Of a stretch of 64,000 bases of DNA, positions 52,278 through 61,876 are shown piece by piece. Position numbers and translations under genes: made by a program. Where the stretch lies: positions 368,572 through 432,571 of the forward strand of contig JANBVJ010000001.1 in assembly GCA_024239055.1 (NCBI GenBank), in the 5' to 3' direction. The notes beneath the pieces were generated by a model that was given only the letters and a program-made list of their open reading frames with translations, was not told where the DNA came from and did no database searches. Source of the DNA: Patescibacteria group bacterium (GTDB lineage Bacteria; Patescibacteriota; Minisyncoccia; Minisyncoccales; UBA10102). The number at the start of each line of letters is the position of its first letter. Position 1 is the first letter of the stretch.

Positions 52278-53945
52278 CTACTGCACTCTTCCGTCTGTTA
52301 TACTTTCGTCATCTTCAAGTATTGTGGTAATTGCCTCGTCAGTTGAGGAAACAAGTCTATTGGTAAAGATATCGTCTCCCGTAATCCTTACCTCTGAAAT
52401 AAGCTCTGGGGTAGTGCCTACCTGAAACTCTTGCGGGGTAAAACTGACCTGAAAGGAAACCGAAGCTGCCGAACCAAAGGTTCCGCTCCCCGCTACAATA
52501 TCTCCTGCATCCCAGACAACCTCACGAGATGCTGAATCATACACCAGAGAACTATCTTGAGGAAAGATATTGCCAGACAACTGCACTCCCTGCCCCAAAG
52601 ACGCCCTTACTTTTACGTTATTAACATCATTATATGAGTTAGAAGCTGTCCAAGTAATGGTATAGGTAGTTGAAGTTTCGACTTGCGGAGGCAGGGGCCC
52701 CTGATTACCAAAGACCTCATCCTGGAATCTTCCTGTCTGCTCAATTAAAAGCTTGGAAGATACGGGAACCTTAAACTCTTCTCTAATGTCCGACAAGACC
52801 ACTGTTGTCTTTATGGAGAAGTCCTTATCTTGAGCACTAAACTGTTCCCATTCCTCTAGAACATTCACCCAAAACTCAACTCTTCCTTCCTCGCCCTTTC
52901 CCAGAAATCTTAAGCGCCCAACATCGCGGGACTCCCAAAGAATAGATTTTCCTCCCTGCTGGGATTCCCCATATGTTGATGTAAGAGTTGAGAGATTAAG
53001 AGGGCGACCATCAAGATTAATCACCAAGAACAGATTTTCTAAGTTCTTATCGGAAACATTCTTAAAAGAAATCTCGTAATGCAGGGTATCTCCAGGTAAG
53101 GCTACAAATCCTACCTCGTCATTCACGCGTTGTGAAATAATCATCTGAGGAACCGCAATCTCAACTCCTCTGACTGACTCCTTAAACAATGTAAAGTCTC
53201 CGTCTTCCCAACTGCCGATTCTTGCTTCAAATATCTTCGCCTCATTCAATTCCCCTTCAATAGATCCGGTAATGGTAATACGTCCACCCTCAGCTCTGTT
53301 TACAAGGCCCAAAGACCACTCTGAATCTCCAATGGATGTAGGGGAGGCGCTTTTAAAAGTAAATCCATCTGGGTAGTCAATTGATATTCTCATATTAGAA
53401 AGCGGATACTCTGAATTTGAGAAATAGTTTAGAGAAAATTCAAACTCCTGTCCTGACTCAATCCTCGAAGGAAGATCAAGTTCAAAGTTCAGGGGCACAA
53501 AAGAAATGACGGTGGAAGCCGTGGTTTCAGCTGAGAAGCGACCAGTTAGATTCTTTGGAGTATAGGTAATCTGAGCTTTGGCTTCCTTAACCTCATTTTT
53601 CTTTCCAAAGAGACGGGCGGGAAACTCCATAGTTCGTTCCTGTCCAGGATAAATATCTTCTAACTCCTGAGTAACGCGTCTTGAATCTCCCTCCAAAAAT
53701 ACCGCTCCCCCTGGATACTCAAAGATAAGAATAGGATTCTCCAATCTTACATTCCCATTGTTCTTGTACTTCACCGTATAGACAACCTCTTGGCCCATGT
53801 CAGCCTCATCAGGCGCTAAAATCTCAAGCCGCAATACTTCTTTTGAAAAAATATTCTGCTGCCATACAAAAGCTGCTATTGCAATAACAACAAGAACGGA
53901 AATTGCAATAATCCACGAACGTTTTATTTTTTTTCTTGAACGCAT
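52278..53945 (-). CDS. Membrane-anchored protein with repeated beta-sandwich (DUF11/CARDB-like) modules
   Basis: N-terminal TM helix WIIAISVLVVIAIAAFVW. Repeated Y-x-I/V-x-Y/F-x-N-x-(G/S) strands, for example VVYTVKYKNNGNVRLEN, LHYEISFKNVSDKNLEN and YTITWTASNSYNDVNN. Confidence 0.6.
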   Translation of the reverse strand: MRSRKKIKRSWIIAISVLVVIAIAAFVWQQNIFSKEVLRLEILAPDEADMGQEVVYTVKYKNNGNVRLENPILIFEYPGGAVFLEGDSRRVTQELEDIYPGQERTMEFPARLFGKKNEVKEAKAQITYTPKNLTGRFSAETTASTVISFVPLNFELDLPSRIESGQEFEFSLNYFSNSEYPLSNMRISIDYPDGFTFKSASPTSIGDSEWSLGLVNRAEGGRITITGSIEGELNEAKIFEARIGSWEDGDFTLFKESVRGVEIAVPQMIISQRVNDEVGFVALPGDTLHYEISFKNVSDKNLENLFLVINLDGRPLNLSTLTSTYGESQQGGKSILWESRDVGRLRFLGKGEEGRVEFWVNVLEEWEQFSAQDKDFSIKTTVVLSDIREEFKVPVSSKLLIEQTGRFQDEVFGNQGPLPPQVETSTTYTITWTASNSYNDVNNVKVRASLGQGVQLSGNIFPQDSSLVYDSASREVVWDAGDIVAGSGTFGSAASVSFQVSFTPQEFQVGTTPELISEVRITGDDIFTNRLVSSTDEAITTILEDDESITDGRVQ

Positions 53946-53962
53946 TTATTTATTCTACCAGA

Positions 53963-54685
53963 TTAAGAAATTCGCTCCAAGACATGAGCTAAGTAATTCC
54001 GCGATGCCTGACGAAACGCCCTAGTCTCAGAAAGGGGCATTGTGGTATTAGAAAGAAAAGCTGTATCTGAAATTAACATATTACGCAGCTGTCTTAAAGT
54101 TTCGGGAGACAGCTTTATGCCTTTTGATGCAGCGCATTGCGTACATTTAATTCCTCCGTCTATTGCATGAAAGAAAACATCTCTATCCTCCACTCCTCCC
54201 TTACACGAAACACAGGAATTAAGATGAGGTTTATATCCAGTTAAGGAAACAAGATTCCATAAAAAGTGATATGGGAGAAGATTCAAGGTTTTTACATCAA
54301 GAGTTTTTTGATTCAACGCATACAAACTATTCATTATTAAACGCCAAGCTGTTTGTTCTTCCTGCTCTTGTGAAAGTAGAACATCCATAGAACGAAAAAT
54401 ACTGAAAGCAGTTCTCAATCTCTTCATATCTTTTGCAATATTAGAATAATGAATCTCAACCTCAGCTGCAGTAAGAGTCTTCCCTACTTTTCCTTGAATA
54501 AACTCCAGATTCACAACGGCACAAGAGACCAACCCACCTCTGAGTTTTGAAGTGATTTTTCTTTGTGAAACCGCACGAAGCCGTATCTTACCAAATAATT
54601 CGGTAAACACAACAAAAATACGGTCAGCTTCTCCAGTGTTAAAAGAAGTAAGGATAATTCCAGGTGTGCGATAATATGTTGCCAT
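53963..54685 (-). CDS. recO: DNA repair protein RecO
   Basis: OB-fold N-terminus (YRTPGIILTSFNTGEADRIFVVFT) and the zinc motif CVSC..CTQC. Confidence 0.85.
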   Translation of the reverse strand: MATYYRTPGIILTSFNTGEADRIFVVFTELFGKIRLRAVSQRKITSKLRGGLVSCAVVNLEFIQGKVGKTLTAAEVEIHYSNIAKDMKRLRTAFSIFRSMDVLLSQEQEEQTAWRLIMNSLYALNQKTLDVKTLNLLPYHFLWNLVSLTGYKPHLNSCVSCKGGVEDRDVFFHAIDGGIKCTQCAASKGIKLSPETLRQLRNMLISDTAFLSNTTMPLSETRAFRQASRNYLAHVLERIS

Positions 54686-57600
54686 TAGAATTTGCGAATA
54701 CCCATCCAGAGTTTCATGCCTTCCAAGAGAAAGTCCTGCTCCACGTCAAAGACCTGTTTTGGGCGATCCCCCACTTGAATATCAGACACTCCAACTAACT
54801 GAGTTATTTGTTTTGAGTTGGTACCAATAAGATTTTGCAGTTCTTTGTTTCCTGAATATCTAAGCCGTATTCTATCAGATGGTTTATACCCAGCCTTTCT
54901 TCTCATGCTCTGAATATGACGAATAATCTCACGCACCTGACCCTCTTTTCTAAGTTCCAGAGTAATATTTATATCGAGCTCAACATCTGTTTTTAAAGAA
55001 GAGGAAAACACAATTTTTTTCACATTTACCTCTTCTACAACTAAGGATGCTAATTTAGGATCCAGTTTTTTTCCTTTAACACTAAGTTTTCCCAGGGGTT
55101 GCCTAACCCGAATACCTTCTGCTGCTCTCACAGCCAGCGTATGCTGAACAATTTTTCTAGCTAAAGTCATGTCTTCCTGGAGTTTCTTTTTTATAAGAGC
55201 TGTCTTTGCCTTTGGCCAGTCTTCTAAATGCACACTCTCCATCTCACCCTTCAACTCTCCGTATATATGTTCTGTGAGAAAAGGAATAAAAGGAGCAGAA
55301 AGCTTAGAAACATTCAGCAATACCTCGCGCAGAGTATTTGATGCTTGTTTTAAATCTGCCCTAGACGATGGATTCTGAAATCGACTTCGGGACCTCCTGA
55401 TATACCATAAAGACATATCGTCTAAAACAAAGGATTCTATTGCGCGCGCGGCTCCCGTAACATCATATTTTGAAAGCAAATCTGTTGTTTCTTTTACAAG
55501 AGAATTCAGACGAGAGAGAATCCAGACATCCAGCACATTACTGGACTTTGTACTCATACCTGGCTTTGCATACGTCTCATAAAACACATAGGAGTTTAGG
55601 AGAGGAAGCATAAACTTTCTGACTGCTAAAGCCACGTCTTTTTCAGAAAAGAGCTTTGGTTCAGAAGGATTATTTATTGTGTAGAAATACCATCTCGTAG
55701 CATCACTACCATATTCTTCCATTATATCTGAGGGATTCACTACATTATCCTTGGACTTTGACATCTTCTGCCCTTTTTCATCTAATACATGGGCGGGCGC
55801 GATAACATTCTTAAACGGAGCTCCCTTACCCAATAAGGTTGAGATGGTCAACAACGTATAAAACCATCCCCTTGTTTGGTCAATTGCTTCAGAAATGTAA
55901 TCTGCAGGAAACTGTTCTTTTTTATCTATCAAGTTTTTATTCTCAAAAGGATAATGATACTGCGCAAAAGGCATGGCACCAGAATCAAACCAGACATCCA
56001 CAACCTCCTTTACTCTTTGCATCTCTCCATTACATGTTGCGCATGATAAAACAACATCATCAATATAAGGCCGATGAAGGTCTAACTCCATATCTTCATT
56101 ATATGGAAGGTGTTTAAACTCCAGCTTCCTGCATTGAGCCGTTGCAATACTTTTATTTTCCTTATATTCAAAAGATTCCTTATTGGTTAATCCTAGTACA
56201 GCTGTTTCAAGCATAGTTATAGGAGTCTGATGAGAAATTAATAATATAGTCTTTCCTTTATACTTTTTCTCCAGAGCTTTAAGTAAGTTATATGTTCTCT
56301 TTTTTACATCACTGTAACTCTCTCCTTTTGGATGTCTGATACGCATCTTTTTCTCAAAGATTTCATACGGCGTTAAATCATCTTCTCCAAAAAATGCCTT
56401 AGCCTCCTTGCGAAGCTTCCCATTAAAAATACCGACATCATCCTCGCGCAATGCCTTTTCAGGCAGAAATTTCACATCCAGCTTCTCCGCTATAATTTCA
56501 GCTGTTTCTTTGGTTCGCAGTAGATCGGAGGATAAAATAATATCTATTCCTTTATTTTTAAGTTGTTTGGCGGTGGCAACCGCTTCCTTTCTTCCTTTTG
56601 CAGTAAGGTGCAGTTTTAGATTCTCAGGCCATGAAAGGTCCACATCATCCATATTCTGGCGCTCAGAATGTCCATGACGCATAACGTAATAAGTGTTCTT
56701 TGACTTTTGCTTTGAGAGTAAATCATTCCGAGAACCAATAACCTCATACTCCTTACAATTATTACACTCCCAAACAGGAAGTGGGGTTCCCCAGTAACGT
56801 TCTCTGGAAAACGTCCAGTCCTTTGCCTCAGCTAACCACTTACCGAATCTTCCTTCTTTCATATGGGAAGGCACCCAGTTTATGGTCTTGTTGTTTGAAA
56901 TGAGTTTTGTACGGTCTTTCTGCACATTCACAAACCATCCCTCCTTTGCATAGTACAAAAGAGGGGTAGAACACCTCCAGCAAAATGGATACTCGTGCTC
57001 ATACATCTCTTCTTTGAATAAAAGACCTCTTTTCTTTAAATCCTGAATAATTAAGGGGTCTGCATCTTTTACAAACTTCCCCTTCCACGGAGTCACGCTC
57101 TCAATAAACTTTCCTTGTTCATTAACCAAATGAAGCATGGCCAGATTCTCTTTCTTTCCAAGCTCAAAGTCGTCAGATCCATAGGCTACCGCTGTATGAA
57201 CAATGCCGGTTCCCTCTTTTGAAGAAACAAAGTCAGCTCCAACTACTTCCCATACCTTCTTTCCTTCCTCTGGCTTTCCAAAGGAAAAAACAGGCTCATA
57301 TTTTAAACCAATGAGTTTCTTTCCTTTTTCTTTTCTTATCTCTTCATACTCTCCCAAAACTGCAGTAGCGCGGGAGGCTGCTACCACATAGGTCTTTCCG
57401 TCTTTCTTTCCAACTACATAATCTAAGTCAGGGTTTACAGCTAACGCCACGTTGCCAGGAAGCGTCCAGGGAGTCGTAGTCCATGCAAGCAGGTGCATGT
57501 TCTTGCCTTTAACCTTAAAGGATACATATATAGAAGGTTCCTTTACGGTCTCATATCCCTGGGCTACCTCGTGAAAGGAAATAGGGGTTTCACATCTCGG

Positions 57601-58128
57601 ACAGTAGGGAACCACCTTGTAATCCTTATATAAAAGCTTTCTGTCTGAGAACTGTTTTATCACCCACCATAAACTCTCCATATACTCTGTCTCATAAGTA
57701 ATGTAGGAATCCTTCTGGTCAATCCAAAAAGCAATACGCTCAGTTAAGTCTTCCCATTCTTTTTTATACTTAAATACAGATTCCCTGCACACCTTATTAA
57801 ACTTTGCGATTCCATACTTTTCAATATCCTGTTTTGACTTTAAGCCAAGCTTTTTTTCCACCTCAAGCTCCACGGGCAGGCCGTGCGTATCCCATCCAGC
57901 ACGCCTTCTAACATAAAATCCCTGCATGGTCTTAAAACGGCATATTATATCTTTATATGCCCGTCCCAGAACATGATGAATTCCAGGACTTCCGTTTGCA
58001 GTAGGAGGACCTTCATAAAATACAAAAGTAGACGACTTTCTGCGCCTATCAAGAGATTTTTGAAAGATATTATTTGACTTCCAGAGCTTCAATATCTGCT
58101 CTTCTCTCTCAGAAAAATTAAATGCCAT
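54685..58128 (-). CDS. ileS: Isoleucyl-tRNA synthetase carrying an internal histidine-phosphatase domain
   Basis: PPTANGSPGIHHVLGR, WTTTPWTLPGN (editing domain), KMSKSKDN. The insert at aa ~478-672 carries RHG...SH phosphatase motifs (see findings). Confidence 0.95.
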   Translation of the reverse strand: MAFNFSEREEQILKLWKSNNIFQKSLDRRRKSSTFVFYEGPPTANGSPGIHHVLGRAYKDIICRFKTMQGFYVRRRAGWDTHGLPVELEVEKKLGLKSKQDIEKYGIAKFNKVCRESVFKYKKEWEDLTERIAFWIDQKDSYITYETEYMESLWWVIKQFSDRKLLYKDYKVVPYCPRCETPISFHEVAQGYETVKEPSIYVSFKVKGKNMHLLAWTTTPWTLPGNVALAVNPDLDYVVGKKDGKTYVVAASRATAVLGEYEEIRKEKGKKLIGLKYEPVFSFGKPEEGKKVWEVVGADFVSSKEGTGIVHTAVAYGSDDFELGKKENLAMLHLVNEQGKFIESVTPWKGKFVKDADPLIIQDLKKRGLLFKEEMYEHEYPFCWRCSTPLLYYAKEGWFVNVQKDRTKLISNNKTINWVPSHMKEGRFGKWLAEAKDWTFSRERYWGTPLPVWECNNCKEYEVIGSRNDLLSKQKSKNTYYVMRHGHSERQNMDDVDLSWPENLKLHLTAKGRKEAVATAKQLKNKGIDIILSSDLLRTKETAEIIAEKLDVKFLPEKALREDDVGIFNGKLRKEAKAFFGEDDLTPYEIFEKKMRIRHPKGESYSDVKKRTYNLLKALEKKYKGKTILLISHQTPITMLETAVLGLTNKESFEYKENKSIATAQCRKLEFKHLPYNEDMELDLHRPYIDDVVLSCATCNGEMQRVKEVVDVWFDSGAMPFAQYHYPFENKNLIDKKEQFPADYISEAIDQTRGWFYTLLTISTLLGKGAPFKNVIAPAHVLDEKGQKMSKSKDNVVNPSDIMEEYGSDATRWYFYTINNPSEPKLFSEKDVALAVRKFMLPLLNSYVFYETYAKPGMSTKSSNVLDVWILSRLNSLVKETTDLLSKYDVTGAARAIESFVLDDMSLWYIRRSRSRFQNPSSRADLKQASNTLREVLLNVSKLSAPFIPFLTEHIYGELKGEMESVHLEDWPKAKTALIKKKLQEDMTLARKIVQHTLAVRAAEGIRVRQPLGKLSVKGKKLDPKLASLVVEEVNVKKIVFSSSLKTDVELDINITLELRKEGQVREIIRHIQSMRRKAGYKPSDRIRLRYSGNKELQNLIGTNSKQITQLVGVSDIQVGDRPKQVFDVEQDFLLEGMKLWMGIRKF

Positions 58129-58221: not shown

Positions 58222-58626
58222 TTAGTCTTCAGGAATTGCTTCCTCGGGGATTCCAAGAATTGCTCCAAAAAATCGTTTCCGATTAGTTCCAAGCATTCTC
58301 TTGTCCACCACAGTAATCCCAACCTCATCACTACTGAGTCTAAGATACTCAGGTTTATCGGTTAAGACAACAATTCTTGCTGACTTGTGGGTATCACGAA
58401 CCTTGACTGCTTCCTCCCATGCAAGGCTCGTGGGGAATATGAATATCTCCCCAGAAGGGAAACCCATATTCGGATTCCACCCAACAATCTGAATTTTATC
58501 CTGTCCCGGATAAATTTGTTCAAATCGTAACTTGAGGCTCTCCAAGAATATCTCAAAAGTTCTTGGGGAATCAACTGCTTCGCCTCCGAATATGGCGACG
58601 ATTTTGGCTTGTGTATTTGTTGACAT
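58222..58626 (-). CDS. Orphan hypothetical protein (134 aa), alternating beta/alpha pattern
   Basis: ORF with its own near-consensus promoter, a GGAG upstream and a terminator; no motif recognised. Confidence 0.6.
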   Translation of the reverse strand: MSTNTQAKIVAIFGGEAVDSPRTFEIFLESLKLRFEQIYPGQDKIQIVGWNPNMGFPSGEIFIFPTSLAWEEAVKVRDTHKSARIVVLTDKPEYLRLSSDEVGITVVDKRMLGTNRKRFFGAILGIPEEAIPED

Positions 58627-58824: not shown

Positions 58825-59205
58825 ATGACAAAGAAAATTCTTATTGTAGATGACTCAGATGATGATTCTGATGCAGCAACAGTTGCATTGAGAGGTATCA
58901 TGGGTAGAGATGAAATATCCATAATTTACGCCAACACTATCTTGGATGCAGAGAGAAAATTCTTTGCTCCTGAAAATCAAGATATTGTTGGCATCATTAT
59001 GGATGGCCACGTCTCTGCTGGATCTACTAACGCAAAGGACACTCCTGAACTTGTAAAAGAGTTCAGAGAAACCTTTGAGGGTCCAATTATTGCTTCTTCC
59101 AGTGACTCAGCTTTAGCTGAAAGATTAGTTGAAGCTGGTTGTGATGAAGCTGGAGACAAAGGAATCGGAGTAGCAAGGATAATGCATAAACGTCTTGCTA
59201 CATAA
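58825..59205 (+). CDS. Stand-alone CheY-like receiver-domain protein
   Basis: KILIVDDSDDD (acidic pocket), GIIMDGH (putative phospho-Asp) and IIASSS (Thr/Ser position). There is no output domain and no kinase in the window. Confidence 0.6.
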   Translation: MTKKILIVDDSDDDSDAATVALRGIMGRDEISIIYANTILDAERKFFAPENQDIVGIIMDGHVSAGSTNAKDTPELVKEFRETFEGPIIASSSDSALAERLVEAGCDEAGDKGIGVARIMHKRLAT

Positions 59206-61051: not shown

Positions 61052-61498
61052 ATGGCTACATTTGCTGACAACAGAAAAGCGTGGCATGATTATGAAATAT
61101 TAGAGACCTTCCAGGGAGGTCTTTCTTTAAACGGACAAGAAGTAAAATCTATTCGGGGAGGAAGAATAAATCTAGCGGGTTCCTACGTAGACTTAAAAGA
61201 CCAGGAATTGTTCCTAGTCGGAGCAAATATACCGCCCTATCAGCCTGCAAACGCACCGGCTAACTATAATCCAGAACGCGCAAGAAAACTTCTTCTAACA
61301 GCTAAAGAAATTAGGTATTTAATCGGGAAAGTAAAGGAGCGAGGCTTGACTTTGGTACCCTTAAAGGTGTATAGTATGAAGAGCAAAATCAAGCTTGAGT
61401 TCGGACTCGTAAAATCAAAGAAAAAACAGGATAAAAGAAATATCCTAAAGAAACGCGATGCCGAACGAGAGATGAGGAAAGCTATATTACGGGGGTGA
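61052..61498 (+). CDS. smpB: SsrA-binding protein
   Basis: NRKAWHDYEILETFQGGLSLNGQEVKS and the basic C-terminal tail. TGaTACACT lies 6 nt before the ATG. Confidence 0.95.
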   Translation: MATFADNRKAWHDYEILETFQGGLSLNGQEVKSIRGGRINLAGSYVDLKDQELFLVGANIPPYQPANAPANYNPERARKLLLTAKEIRYLIGKVKERGLTLVPLKVYSMKSKIKLEFGLVKSKKKQDKRNILKKRDAEREMRKAILRG

Positions 61499-61846
61499 CC
61501 GTTTTGACAGAAATGTACTTTAAAAGCTGCAAGTCGAGGGTGTCTAAGACCTCGCAAATCCATTAGACAAGGCTTTAAATGCCAACATATTTGCCCCTCA
61601 AAGGGCACTTGCTTACGCGTAATAACGCTTAAGCCATCCCTCTTTTGAGGCTCCATAGAAAGAGAAGGGTGTCATTATGGAGATAGGCTGAGATGATAAT
61701 TCGGCGTCTTAGTTAAAATCAAACGAATTAAAGATTGAGTACACAAGGTTGCCTTGTTTCCGTACTTAATCTCAAACAAACAAGGATACACTTGTAGAAG
61801 CTTTTAAGGAAACCTTCTGGACGGGAATTCATCTTCCCCACCTCCA
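61491..61846 (+). ncRNA. ssrA: tmRNA (ssrA)
   Basis: The 5' GGGGGTG pairs with the 3' CACCTCC, including the G3-U wobble, followed by discriminator A. A T-arm-like GGGAA-TTCATC-TTCCC is present. The tag reading frame is GCC AAC ATA TTT GCC CCT CAA AGG GCA CTT GCT TAC GCG TAA TAA (61581-61625), giving ANIFAPQRALAYA**. CCA is not fully encoded. Confidence 0.85.
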
Positions 61847-61876
61847 CAAAAATAACAAAACAATCTGGCAAATAGA

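Follow-up and report, generated by a model that had tools for sequence, protein, structure and literature searches.

Within a 64,000-nucleotide (nt) stretch of a Patescibacteria group bacterium genome (assembly GCA_024239055.1, contig JANBVJ010000001.1, positions 368,572 to 432,571; hereafter the window), the isoleucyl-tRNA synthetase (IleRS) gene ileS encodes a protein that carries a complete histidine phosphatase domain inside it. The reading frame is unbroken over 1,147 amino acids (aa), and the phosphatase sits at the tip of a zinc-knuckle hairpin ahead of the second half of the Rossmann fold. In kind this is an aminoacyl-tRNA synthetase with an accessory domain, the added module being a second, unrelated enzyme. 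Both parts belong to well-known families and their combination appears to be new. An earlier note, made from the DNA letters, knew of no description of a phosphatase module inside the Rossmann core of an aminoacyl-tRNA synthetase, and our literature searches agree with this: no description of a phosphatase within IleRS was found among the 8 million papers and preprints searched, and recent IleRS papers (including PMC10485003) and a domain-insertion survey make no mention of an extra phosphatase domain.

The host synthetase and its inserted phosphatase

In order to characterize the host protein, the ileS product was compared with the Pfam and NCBIfam models. Pfam reported tRNA-synt_1 in two stretches (best at aa 11-478), His_Phos_1, Anticodon_1 and DUF5915, and the NCBIfam ileS equivalog TIGR00392 scored 890.5 bits against a cutoff of 621.4, with two match stretches and the insert between them. 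The protein also strongly resembles MupA (858 bits) and MupB (838 bits), and it is this likeness that identifies it as a type-2 IleRS; both scores fall below the 1900-bit "exception" cutoffs of these models, which rules out that it is MupA or MupB itself. DUF5915 forms the C-terminal domain, and neither Pfam nor NCBIfam reported a further C-terminal domain family, such as the zinc-binding one of type 1. The editing motifs TTTPWT (aa 217-222) and GTGIVH (aa 306) both lie in CP1, WFDSG is found at aa 713-717 and KMSKS at aa 788-792, so that outside the insert the IleRS, judged by its editing motifs and KMSKS, looks functional. The earlier note had described an uninterrupted frame of this length with normal class I signatures. 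The frame and all of the motifs that it quoted are present and KMSKS is indeed normal, but HIGH is not, as GIHH is the non-canonical GXHH variant. According to Brkic et al. (2023, PMC10485003), the GXHH form is restricted to IleRS2 and confers mupirocin hyper-resistance. GIHH is common to the relatives L042 and P0124, which also have an embedded phosphatase, and the canonical HYGH is found in the distant two-domain IleRS P0147 and P0177. Database labels for these proteins read only "class I tRNA ligase family protein" or "isoleucine--tRNA ligase".

The boundaries of the insert were determined by alignment with insert-less orthologues from syntenic loci, which read CxxC-x5-IGSxxEL-(0-8 aa)-DLHRPxID-x4-CxxC at the insertion point. 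The alignment thus fixes the insertion point and excludes that the segment is an ordinary connective peptide. The extra segment seen in the earlier note is real, although its size of about 195 aa (aa 478-672; 56110-56700) has to be revised to about 212 aa (aa 471-682; 56083-56718), in which the histidine phosphatase domain is flanked by an N-linker and a C-linker (..EFKHLPYNEDMEL). Its placement in the Rossmann core did not stand. The insertion point is the tip of the second zinc-knuckle hairpin (C455/C458 ... C696/C699), directly N-terminal of the WFDSG helix, and this hairpin is the final connective-peptide element ahead of the second Rossmann half, in a region named CP2 or CP3 depending on the author. 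The phosphatase is therefore within the catalytic domain in sequence alone and lies outside the beta-sheet core.

The His_Phos_1 match (PF00300) lies between the two tRNA-synt_1 stretches, scores 108.8 bits (E=3.6e-31) against a gathering cutoff of 21.7 and covers profile positions 2-175 of 194. With a 36-sequence alignment as input, the AlphaFold2 model of aa 440-720 reached a predicted local distance difference test score (pLDDT) of 91 and a predicted template-modelling score (pTM) of 0.87. In Foldseek its best PDB matches were the phosphatases (about 200 aa each) PspA (4IJ5/4IJ6), GpgP (4PZ9) and PhoE (1H2E), with a probability of 1.00 and target-normalised TM scores of 0.73-0.76 to 4IJ5, 4PZ9 and 1H2E, and a profile-versus-PDB sequence search of the insert gave the same picture. 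Profile, model and Foldseek thus agree on a complete branch-1 histidine phosphatase fold with its motifs in canonical order, as had been claimed. The domain has about 190 aa, a PhoE-like size.

More specific family assignments were not obtained, as the insert falls under every NCBIfam equivalog cutoff, including those for RNase H/acid phosphatase, PspA, CobC, GpmB and dPGM. Its best phosphatase-family match was NF005567, an RNase H/acid-phosphatase fusion (81.5 bits versus a cutoff of 326), with NF045917 (PspA phosphoserine phosphatase) at 77.6 versus 350 and TIGR03162 (CobC alpha-ribazole phosphatase) at 74.0 versus 162.9. A dPGM is ruled out by scores of 42-66 bits against cutoffs of 225-320, and the residues specific to mutases, expected behind the Glu and behind the second His, appear to be missing (LREDDVG; SHQTP).

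The roles of the catalytic residues are well established in the histidine phosphatase superfamily, and the residues predicted to fill them in the insert are conserved in both embedded and free-standing copies (Table 1). R538 falls within the search pattern of the GTDB scan described below, so its conservation count is biased, and it is also invariant in a separately collected alignment (A1). Among the embedded proteins the insert has a mean pairwise identity of 47%; the Rossmann halves reach 68%, the anticodon-binding (53%) and editing (51%) domains lie slightly above the insert, and the C-terminal domain, at 41%, lies below it. That the insert's identity lies between those of the other domains and that its catalytic residues are kept suggests a functional peripheral domain rather than a decaying passenger, and indicates that the insert is under purifying selection.

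The architecture does not depend on a single assembly. An identical protein is recorded as MCP6726861.1 ([quoted passage not shown]) and is present on three contigs, the longest recorded at 568 kb. A first homology search returned many Patescibacteria IleRS fragments that combine PF00133 and PF00300 with the same junctions at 37-50% identity; some of them lack the knuckle cysteines, and the architecture is therefore old. Sixty species representatives of GTDB, at 38-51% identity, have the nested architecture as well. Together with the three contigs, these species-level orthologues rule out misassembly. The insert was also said to have no intein hallmarks and to remain in the mature enzyme. In agreement with this, the Pfam scan of the 1,147-aa protein (E<=0.01) contained no intein, Hint or homing-endonuclease family, which rules out an intein or mobile element; since the domain has free-living enzyme homologues as well, it should remain in the mature protein.

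Embedded and free-standing forms of the phosphatase

The spread of the phosphatase was determined in a GTDB scan that used one genome per species and was seeded by one motif; 356 stretches matched and the best 80 were classified. Sixty of these 80 loci have the phosphatase nested within IleRS at the site used in the window protein; their open frames run to about 1,130-1,230 aa, except for two of 1,368 aa and some that stop at a contig end. In the other 20 it is a free-standing gene encoding about 190-205 aa. In 18 of the 20, the free gene precedes, on the same strand, a syntenic ileS that lacks the insert: in 13 its end is <=140 nt from the ileS start codon or overlaps it, and in 5 it is 0.7-1.4 kb upstream with an accessory open reading frame (ORF) in between. 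One of the two remaining loci has ileS close by on the opposite strand and the other ends at a contig end. The five genomes with an intervening ORF are L077, L082, L064, L081 and L085; the wedged ORFs of L077 (6649-7293) and L082 (6689-7279) encode about 200 aa each and are alike by eye, and L085 has ORFs of 113 and 338 aa at this position.

Three more free examples from metagenomes show the gene order smpB / argS / phosphatase / ileS (934-987 aa) / small ORF / recO / large surface protein. The window has this same order minus the free phosphatase gene, and the smpB-argS-ileS-recO order at its locus is the one seen in insert-less relatives (a comparison of loci only). More generally, argS, smpB, recO and the DUF11 protein described below flank ileS in the embedded and free states alike. 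No extra free copy was found within 6 kb of the embedded loci, indicating that the two states are mutually exclusive. There is also no remnant phosphatase gene upstream of the window ileS, as the family profile matches the embedded copy alone in the whole 64 kb. The link between phosphatase and IleRS is thus a fusion-plus-neighbourhood pattern. In a neighbour-joining (NJ) tree of the IleRS core the free-state lineages are mostly basal, and in an NJ tree of the phosphatase free and embedded copies are interleaved.

Additional architectures came from an exhaustive profile search; of the 1.84 billion representatives screened, 380 proteins matched at E<=1e-30. Among the best 150, which were the ones considered, entries whose length or match position pointed to an unusual architecture were either class Ia synthetases or tandem phosphatases without a host (Table 1). 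The two copies in the L041/L042 IleRS occupy the zinc knuckle and the loop between HYPFEN and FPADYI..DQTRGWF, and are 40% identical to each other. P0215 shares its 90% cluster with five other sequences, on contigs of up to 1.06 Mb. P0238 is a further distant HYGH-type IleRS with two phosphatase domains. A valyl-tRNA synthetase (ValRS) fragment, P0125, has one of its four copies directly after WWGHRIPVWY, which is the topological match of the IleRS knuckle site. ValRS cases are rare, with three further clusters and a frameshifted locus, L088, which like P0125 has several phosphatase domains. In the NJ tree the outlying copies fall outside the core Paceibacteria-type family, suggesting separate acquisitions, and the second L042 copy falls inside it.

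Some matches require other explanations. In L088 (4369-8188, GCA_942491595.1) the valS gene calls are split by frameshifts; alternative genetic code 25 is ruled out since the pieces lie in different frames, and the fragmentation of nearby uvrD and ftsH suggests indel errors. Matches of about 915-980 aa with the phosphatase at about aa 260 could have represented an editing-less IleRS, which is rejected because the one inspected, P0158, starts within the editing domain; they are probably truncated gene calls and no new architecture. In a 1,066-aa partial IleRS from JGI (P0272), three added domains share one frame: the editing region contains an IS200/REP-type Y1 transposase-like domain, the knuckle holds a histidine phosphatase, and a GNAT acetyltransferase domain occupies the loop after FPFEN. 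With three such domains in one protein these loops are evidently permissive, and IleRS loops in the Patescibacteria radiation seem, from these sequences, to be hot spots for in-frame domain gain.

A possible role for the tethered phosphatase

We tentatively favor, at somewhat less than an even chance, that the insert is an active phosphomonoesterase tethered to the synthetase and functionally coupled to it, with a nucleotide or a tRNA end as its substrate. The host would be the housekeeping type-2 IleRS of the organism with a whole branch-1 phosphatase inserted in frame into the end of a surface hairpin, so that synthetic, editing and phosphatase centers would be combined in a single chain. 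Charging of tRNA-Ile would proceed as usual, while the phosphatase module would hydrolyze a phosphomonoester through a phospho-His485 intermediate, with R484 and R538 holding the phosphate, E562 acting as the acid and H633 assisting. Its substrate would be something that meets the synthetase, either a nucleotide-type phosphomonoester or a blocking terminal phosphate at the tRNA acceptor end. Selection would then keep the phosphatase close to the synthetase and would not require exact channelling.

Activity through phospho-His485, coupling and substrate class are all points that we infer from several lines of evidence. From the free gene directly upstream of ileS in sister lineages we read the phosphatase as a dedicated partner of the synthetase that in the window is tethered in cis, which suggests that the two work together. 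The distribution of insertion sites over the connective peptide, the post-WFDSG loop and the anticodon-binding domain argues for tethering over precise channelling. A nucleotide-type or tRNA-end substrate is proposed because the nearest characterized relatives hydrolyze small phosphomonoesters, one of them the nucleotide analogue alpha-ribazole 5'-phosphate, because of the NF005567 match and because yeast branch-1 members remove the terminal phosphate from DNA and ATP (PMC2737285). Of the targets put forward in the earlier note (phosphorylated nucleotides, a tRNA 3' end, Ap4A-type by-products or an inhibitor), Ap4A and inhibitors of the aminoacyl-adenylate type are not phosphomonoesters, and both are unlikely as substrates.

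Several observations weigh against a coupled phosphatase. Among solved structures, the nearest relatives have small metabolites rather than RNA as substrates (phosphoserine, glucosyl-3-phosphoglycerate, alpha-ribazole phosphate and, in PhoE, a broad range). The scattered insertion sites speak against a constant placement of the phosphatase with respect to the synthetic site, and the same loops take unrelated domains, as with the GNAT and IS200/REP-type transposase-like domains of P0272. The high isoelectric point (pI) of the insert (9.3, with most copies at 9.5-10.5) is not distinctive and is uninformative as a clue to RNA binding, because the host parts are as basic (about 9.0-9.2). The two NJ trees, both of them crude, disagree on the ancestral state. 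Finally, the activity is a prediction and the substrate a proposal.

Much of this would equally suit the main rival explanation, in which an ordinary housekeeping metabolite phosphatase came to lie in the ileS operon and later hitch-hiked into a permissive loop, in reduced genomes that are prone to drift. IleRS would here supply only constitutive and stoichiometric expression, with no mechanistic tie to aminoacylation. Besides the small-molecule relatives, the spatial scatter of the sites and the loops that accept foreign domains (in P0272, and in the NCBIfam family ileS_w_GNAT), conserved catalytic residues would be expected in this case as well. We nevertheless consider a hitch-hiker rather unlikely. 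The superfamily has been recruited repeatedly, into IleRS and ValRS, at several sites and apparently from different lineages (the last from the NJ tree only); the free gene adjoins ileS in 18 of the 20 free-state GTDB loci; and free and embedded states exclude each other.

Two other roles are less likely than either a coupled or a hitch-hiking phosphatase. The domain might be non-hydrolytic, serving as a phospho-ligand sensor, an allosteric regulator or a dimerization module. Branch-1 members are often dimers, as are PhoE, PspA and dPGM, so tandem and double copies could act as intramolecular pairs and single copies could dimerize IleRS. The free tandem double phosphatase P0160 (410 aa), the double and quadruple embedded forms and the rigid packing on the hairpin predicted by AlphaFold2 (pTM 0.87) all fit such a role, which we still regard as improbable, since all 61 embedded copies keep the complete catalytic set (nucleophilic and second His, two Arg and the acid), beyond what binding or dimerization needs. 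Alternatively, the domain may be a protein phosphatase acting on the synthetase itself, for example by removing an inhibitory phosphate that a Hip-type kinase toxin had put on the KMSKS loop. The kinases HipA and HipT inactivate class I synthetases (GltX, TrpS) by phosphorylating the ATP-binding loop, the superfamily includes the protein phosphatases SixA, PGAM5 and Sts-1, and a KMSKS is present at aa 788-792. However, the insert shows no special likeness in sequence or structure to the protein-phosphatase members, there is no kinase partner in the conserved neighborhood, and PADLOC gave no match for the insert or for a free homologue, leaving this role slightly more improbable still and providing no link to a defense system. 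An artefact or removed element (a chimeric assembly, a spliced-out intein-like sequence or a misread connective peptide) has in its favor only the a-priori oddity of the arrangement and a slightly lower GC content of the insert (0.34-0.40 versus about 0.38-0.45 in the flanks), and is effectively refuted by the identical protein on three contigs, the junctions shared by 60 species-level orthologues, the Pfam scan free of intein and Hint families, the strong profile and fold matches, and a hairpin that normally has just 0-8 residues at this point.

Known systems, neighboring genes and implications

The closest known system on the synthetase side is IleRS2 with GXHH (Brkic et al. 2023, PMC10485003), which shares with the window protein the Rossmann halves, CP1 editing, KMSKS, the anticodon-binding domain, the type-2 C-terminal domain and the GXHH form of HIGH (GIHH in the window protein), and differs in that the window protein has about 212 extra residues forming a second enzyme in the zinc-knuckle hairpin. 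On the phosphatase side, PhoE/YhfR (1EBB, 1H2E), PspA (4IJ5), GpgP (Rv2419c, 4PZ9) and CobC (6NRU) are the best sequence and structure matches of the insert and have the same fold, size (about 190-200 aa) and catalytic set. Unlike these enzymes, to which the insert is just 20-25% or so identical, most copies of the insert family are very basic, and the family is a clade specific to Patescibacteria whose members are found only within ileS or next to it.

Other fusions provide partial precedents. The RNase H/acid phosphatase NF005567 (Rv2228c type) likewise joins a CobC/PhoE-like phosphatase to a nucleic-acid enzyme, but does so end-to-end rather than nested and with another partner enzyme, and the insert is far below its cutoff of 326; we know of no clear reason for that fusion. 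The family ileS_w_GNAT (NF040702) is a curated precedent for an IleRS with an extra enzyme domain. In it the inserted domain belongs to a different superfamily, and the window protein scores 288.5 bits versus 1999 and has no acetyltransferase match. The GNAT domain of P0272 lies in the loop after HYPFEN, the same loop that holds the second phosphatase copy of L042. The CAAD insertions of cyanobacterial class I synthetases are reportedly also a lineage-specific domain with free-standing homologues that was acquired repeatedly, in a different phylum and as a membrane anchor rather than an enzyme.

Table 1. Features of the window and related phosphatase-bearing proteins. Positions are window coordinates unless a locus handle is given; counts for catalytic residues are embedded and free copies.
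Feature	Position (nt)	Strand	Remarks
ileS ORF	54685..58128	minus	1,147 aa + stop; type-2 IleRS with nested phosphatase (ORF list, Pfam, NCBIfam)
IleRS N-terminal part, aa 1-470	56719..58128	minus	first Rossmann half, CP1/editing domain, first zinc-knuckle half
GIHH, aa 49-52	57973..57984	minus	GXHH form of class I HIGH, non-canonical (motif meaning from PMC10485003)
First CxxC of split zinc knuckle (CNNC), aa 455-458	56755..56766	minus	kept in many orthologues with or without insert
Inserted segment, aa 471-682	56083..56718	minus	about 212 aa; alignment with insert-less syntenic IleRS
His_Phos_1 match, aa 481-660	56149..56688	minus	108.8 bits, E=3.6e-31; AlphaFold2 and Foldseek agree
R484-H485 of RHG motif	56674..56679	minus	invariant, 61/61 and 22/22; H485 predicted phospho-accepting nucleophile
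R538 (LLRTKETA)	56515..56517	minus	second phosphate-binding Arg; invariant among embedded and free copies
E562 (LRE)	56443..56445	minus	predicted general acid; Glu 55/61, Asp 6/61 embedded; Glu 22/22 free
H633 (SHQ)	56230..56232	minus	second catalytic His; 61/61 and 22/22
Second CxxC of split zinc knuckle (CATC), aa 696-699	56032..56043	minus	from alignment
IleRS C-terminal part, aa 683-1147	54688..56082	minus	WFDSG, KMSKS, anticodon-binding domain, DUF5915 C-terminal domain
smpB ORF	61052-61498		overlaps tmRNA start
tmRNA gene	61491-61849	plus	Rfam RF00023, 130 bits
Spacer ORF	58222-58626	minus	134 aa
Spacer ORF	58825-59205	plus	126 aa
555-aa protein	52278-53945	minus	downstream of recO
L041/L042 IleRS	L042:3754-7839	plus	1,368 aa; JBAZJI010000001.1, 957-kb contig; two phosphatase copies
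P0215 IleRS			1,419 aa; canonical HYGH; two copies, knuckle and start of anticodon-binding domain
P0147 IleRS			canonical HYGH; two copies, knuckle and start of anticodon-binding domain
P0177 IleRS			HYGH type; tandem phosphatase pair at knuckle
P0236 IleRS, partial			labelled Candidatus Peribacteria; two phosphatase copies
P0125 ValRS, 1,161-aa fragment			NF004349 411 bits, ileS 199 bits; four phosphatase copies
P0160, free			410 aa; tandem double phosphatase

Other features of the window were also recorded. The tmRNA gene starts at the 3' end of smpB, and ARAGORN was silent on it. Two ORFs occupy the argS-ileS spacer, the position of the free phosphatase in relatives; they have no Pfam match and no tblastn match in any of 87 related loci, and are either lineage-specific genes or no genes at all. 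The 555-aa protein has weak DUF11 and NPCBM-associated repeats and keeps its position in most related loci; from its N-terminal hydrophobic stretch it is probably a surface protein.

Bacterial aminoacyl-tRNA synthetases are highly conserved, and their accessory domains mostly bind tRNA or edit mischarged products. Here an unrelated and apparently active hydrolase is tied to IleRS by three arrangements: its gene may precede ileS, often abutting or overlapping it, the domain may be nested, or several nested copies may be present. The link is seen among the best 80 of 356 GTDB matches in a major uncultivated radiation, and again in ValRS. A fusion and neighborhood pattern of this kind is a classic sign of functional partnership, and this one is apparently undescribed. 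Whatever the function, it provides a clean natural case of an operon neighbor versus a domain nested in an essential enzyme, and it identifies permissive loops of class Ia synthetases. If the coupling is real, it would point to an unknown step of tRNA charging or nucleotide handling in minimal-genome organisms. A broader proposal, which we regard as doubtful, is that in Patescibacteria the class Ia synthetases IleRS and, now and then, ValRS have acquired a third activity, an end-healing or ligand-clearing phosphatase which before charging would strip a blocking phosphate off the tRNA acceptor end or off a nucleotide ligand, and which evolved repeatedly from a two-protein complex into a nested fusion. 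If true, an aminoacyl-tRNA synthetase would here contain its own substrate repair or quality control, of a new kind.

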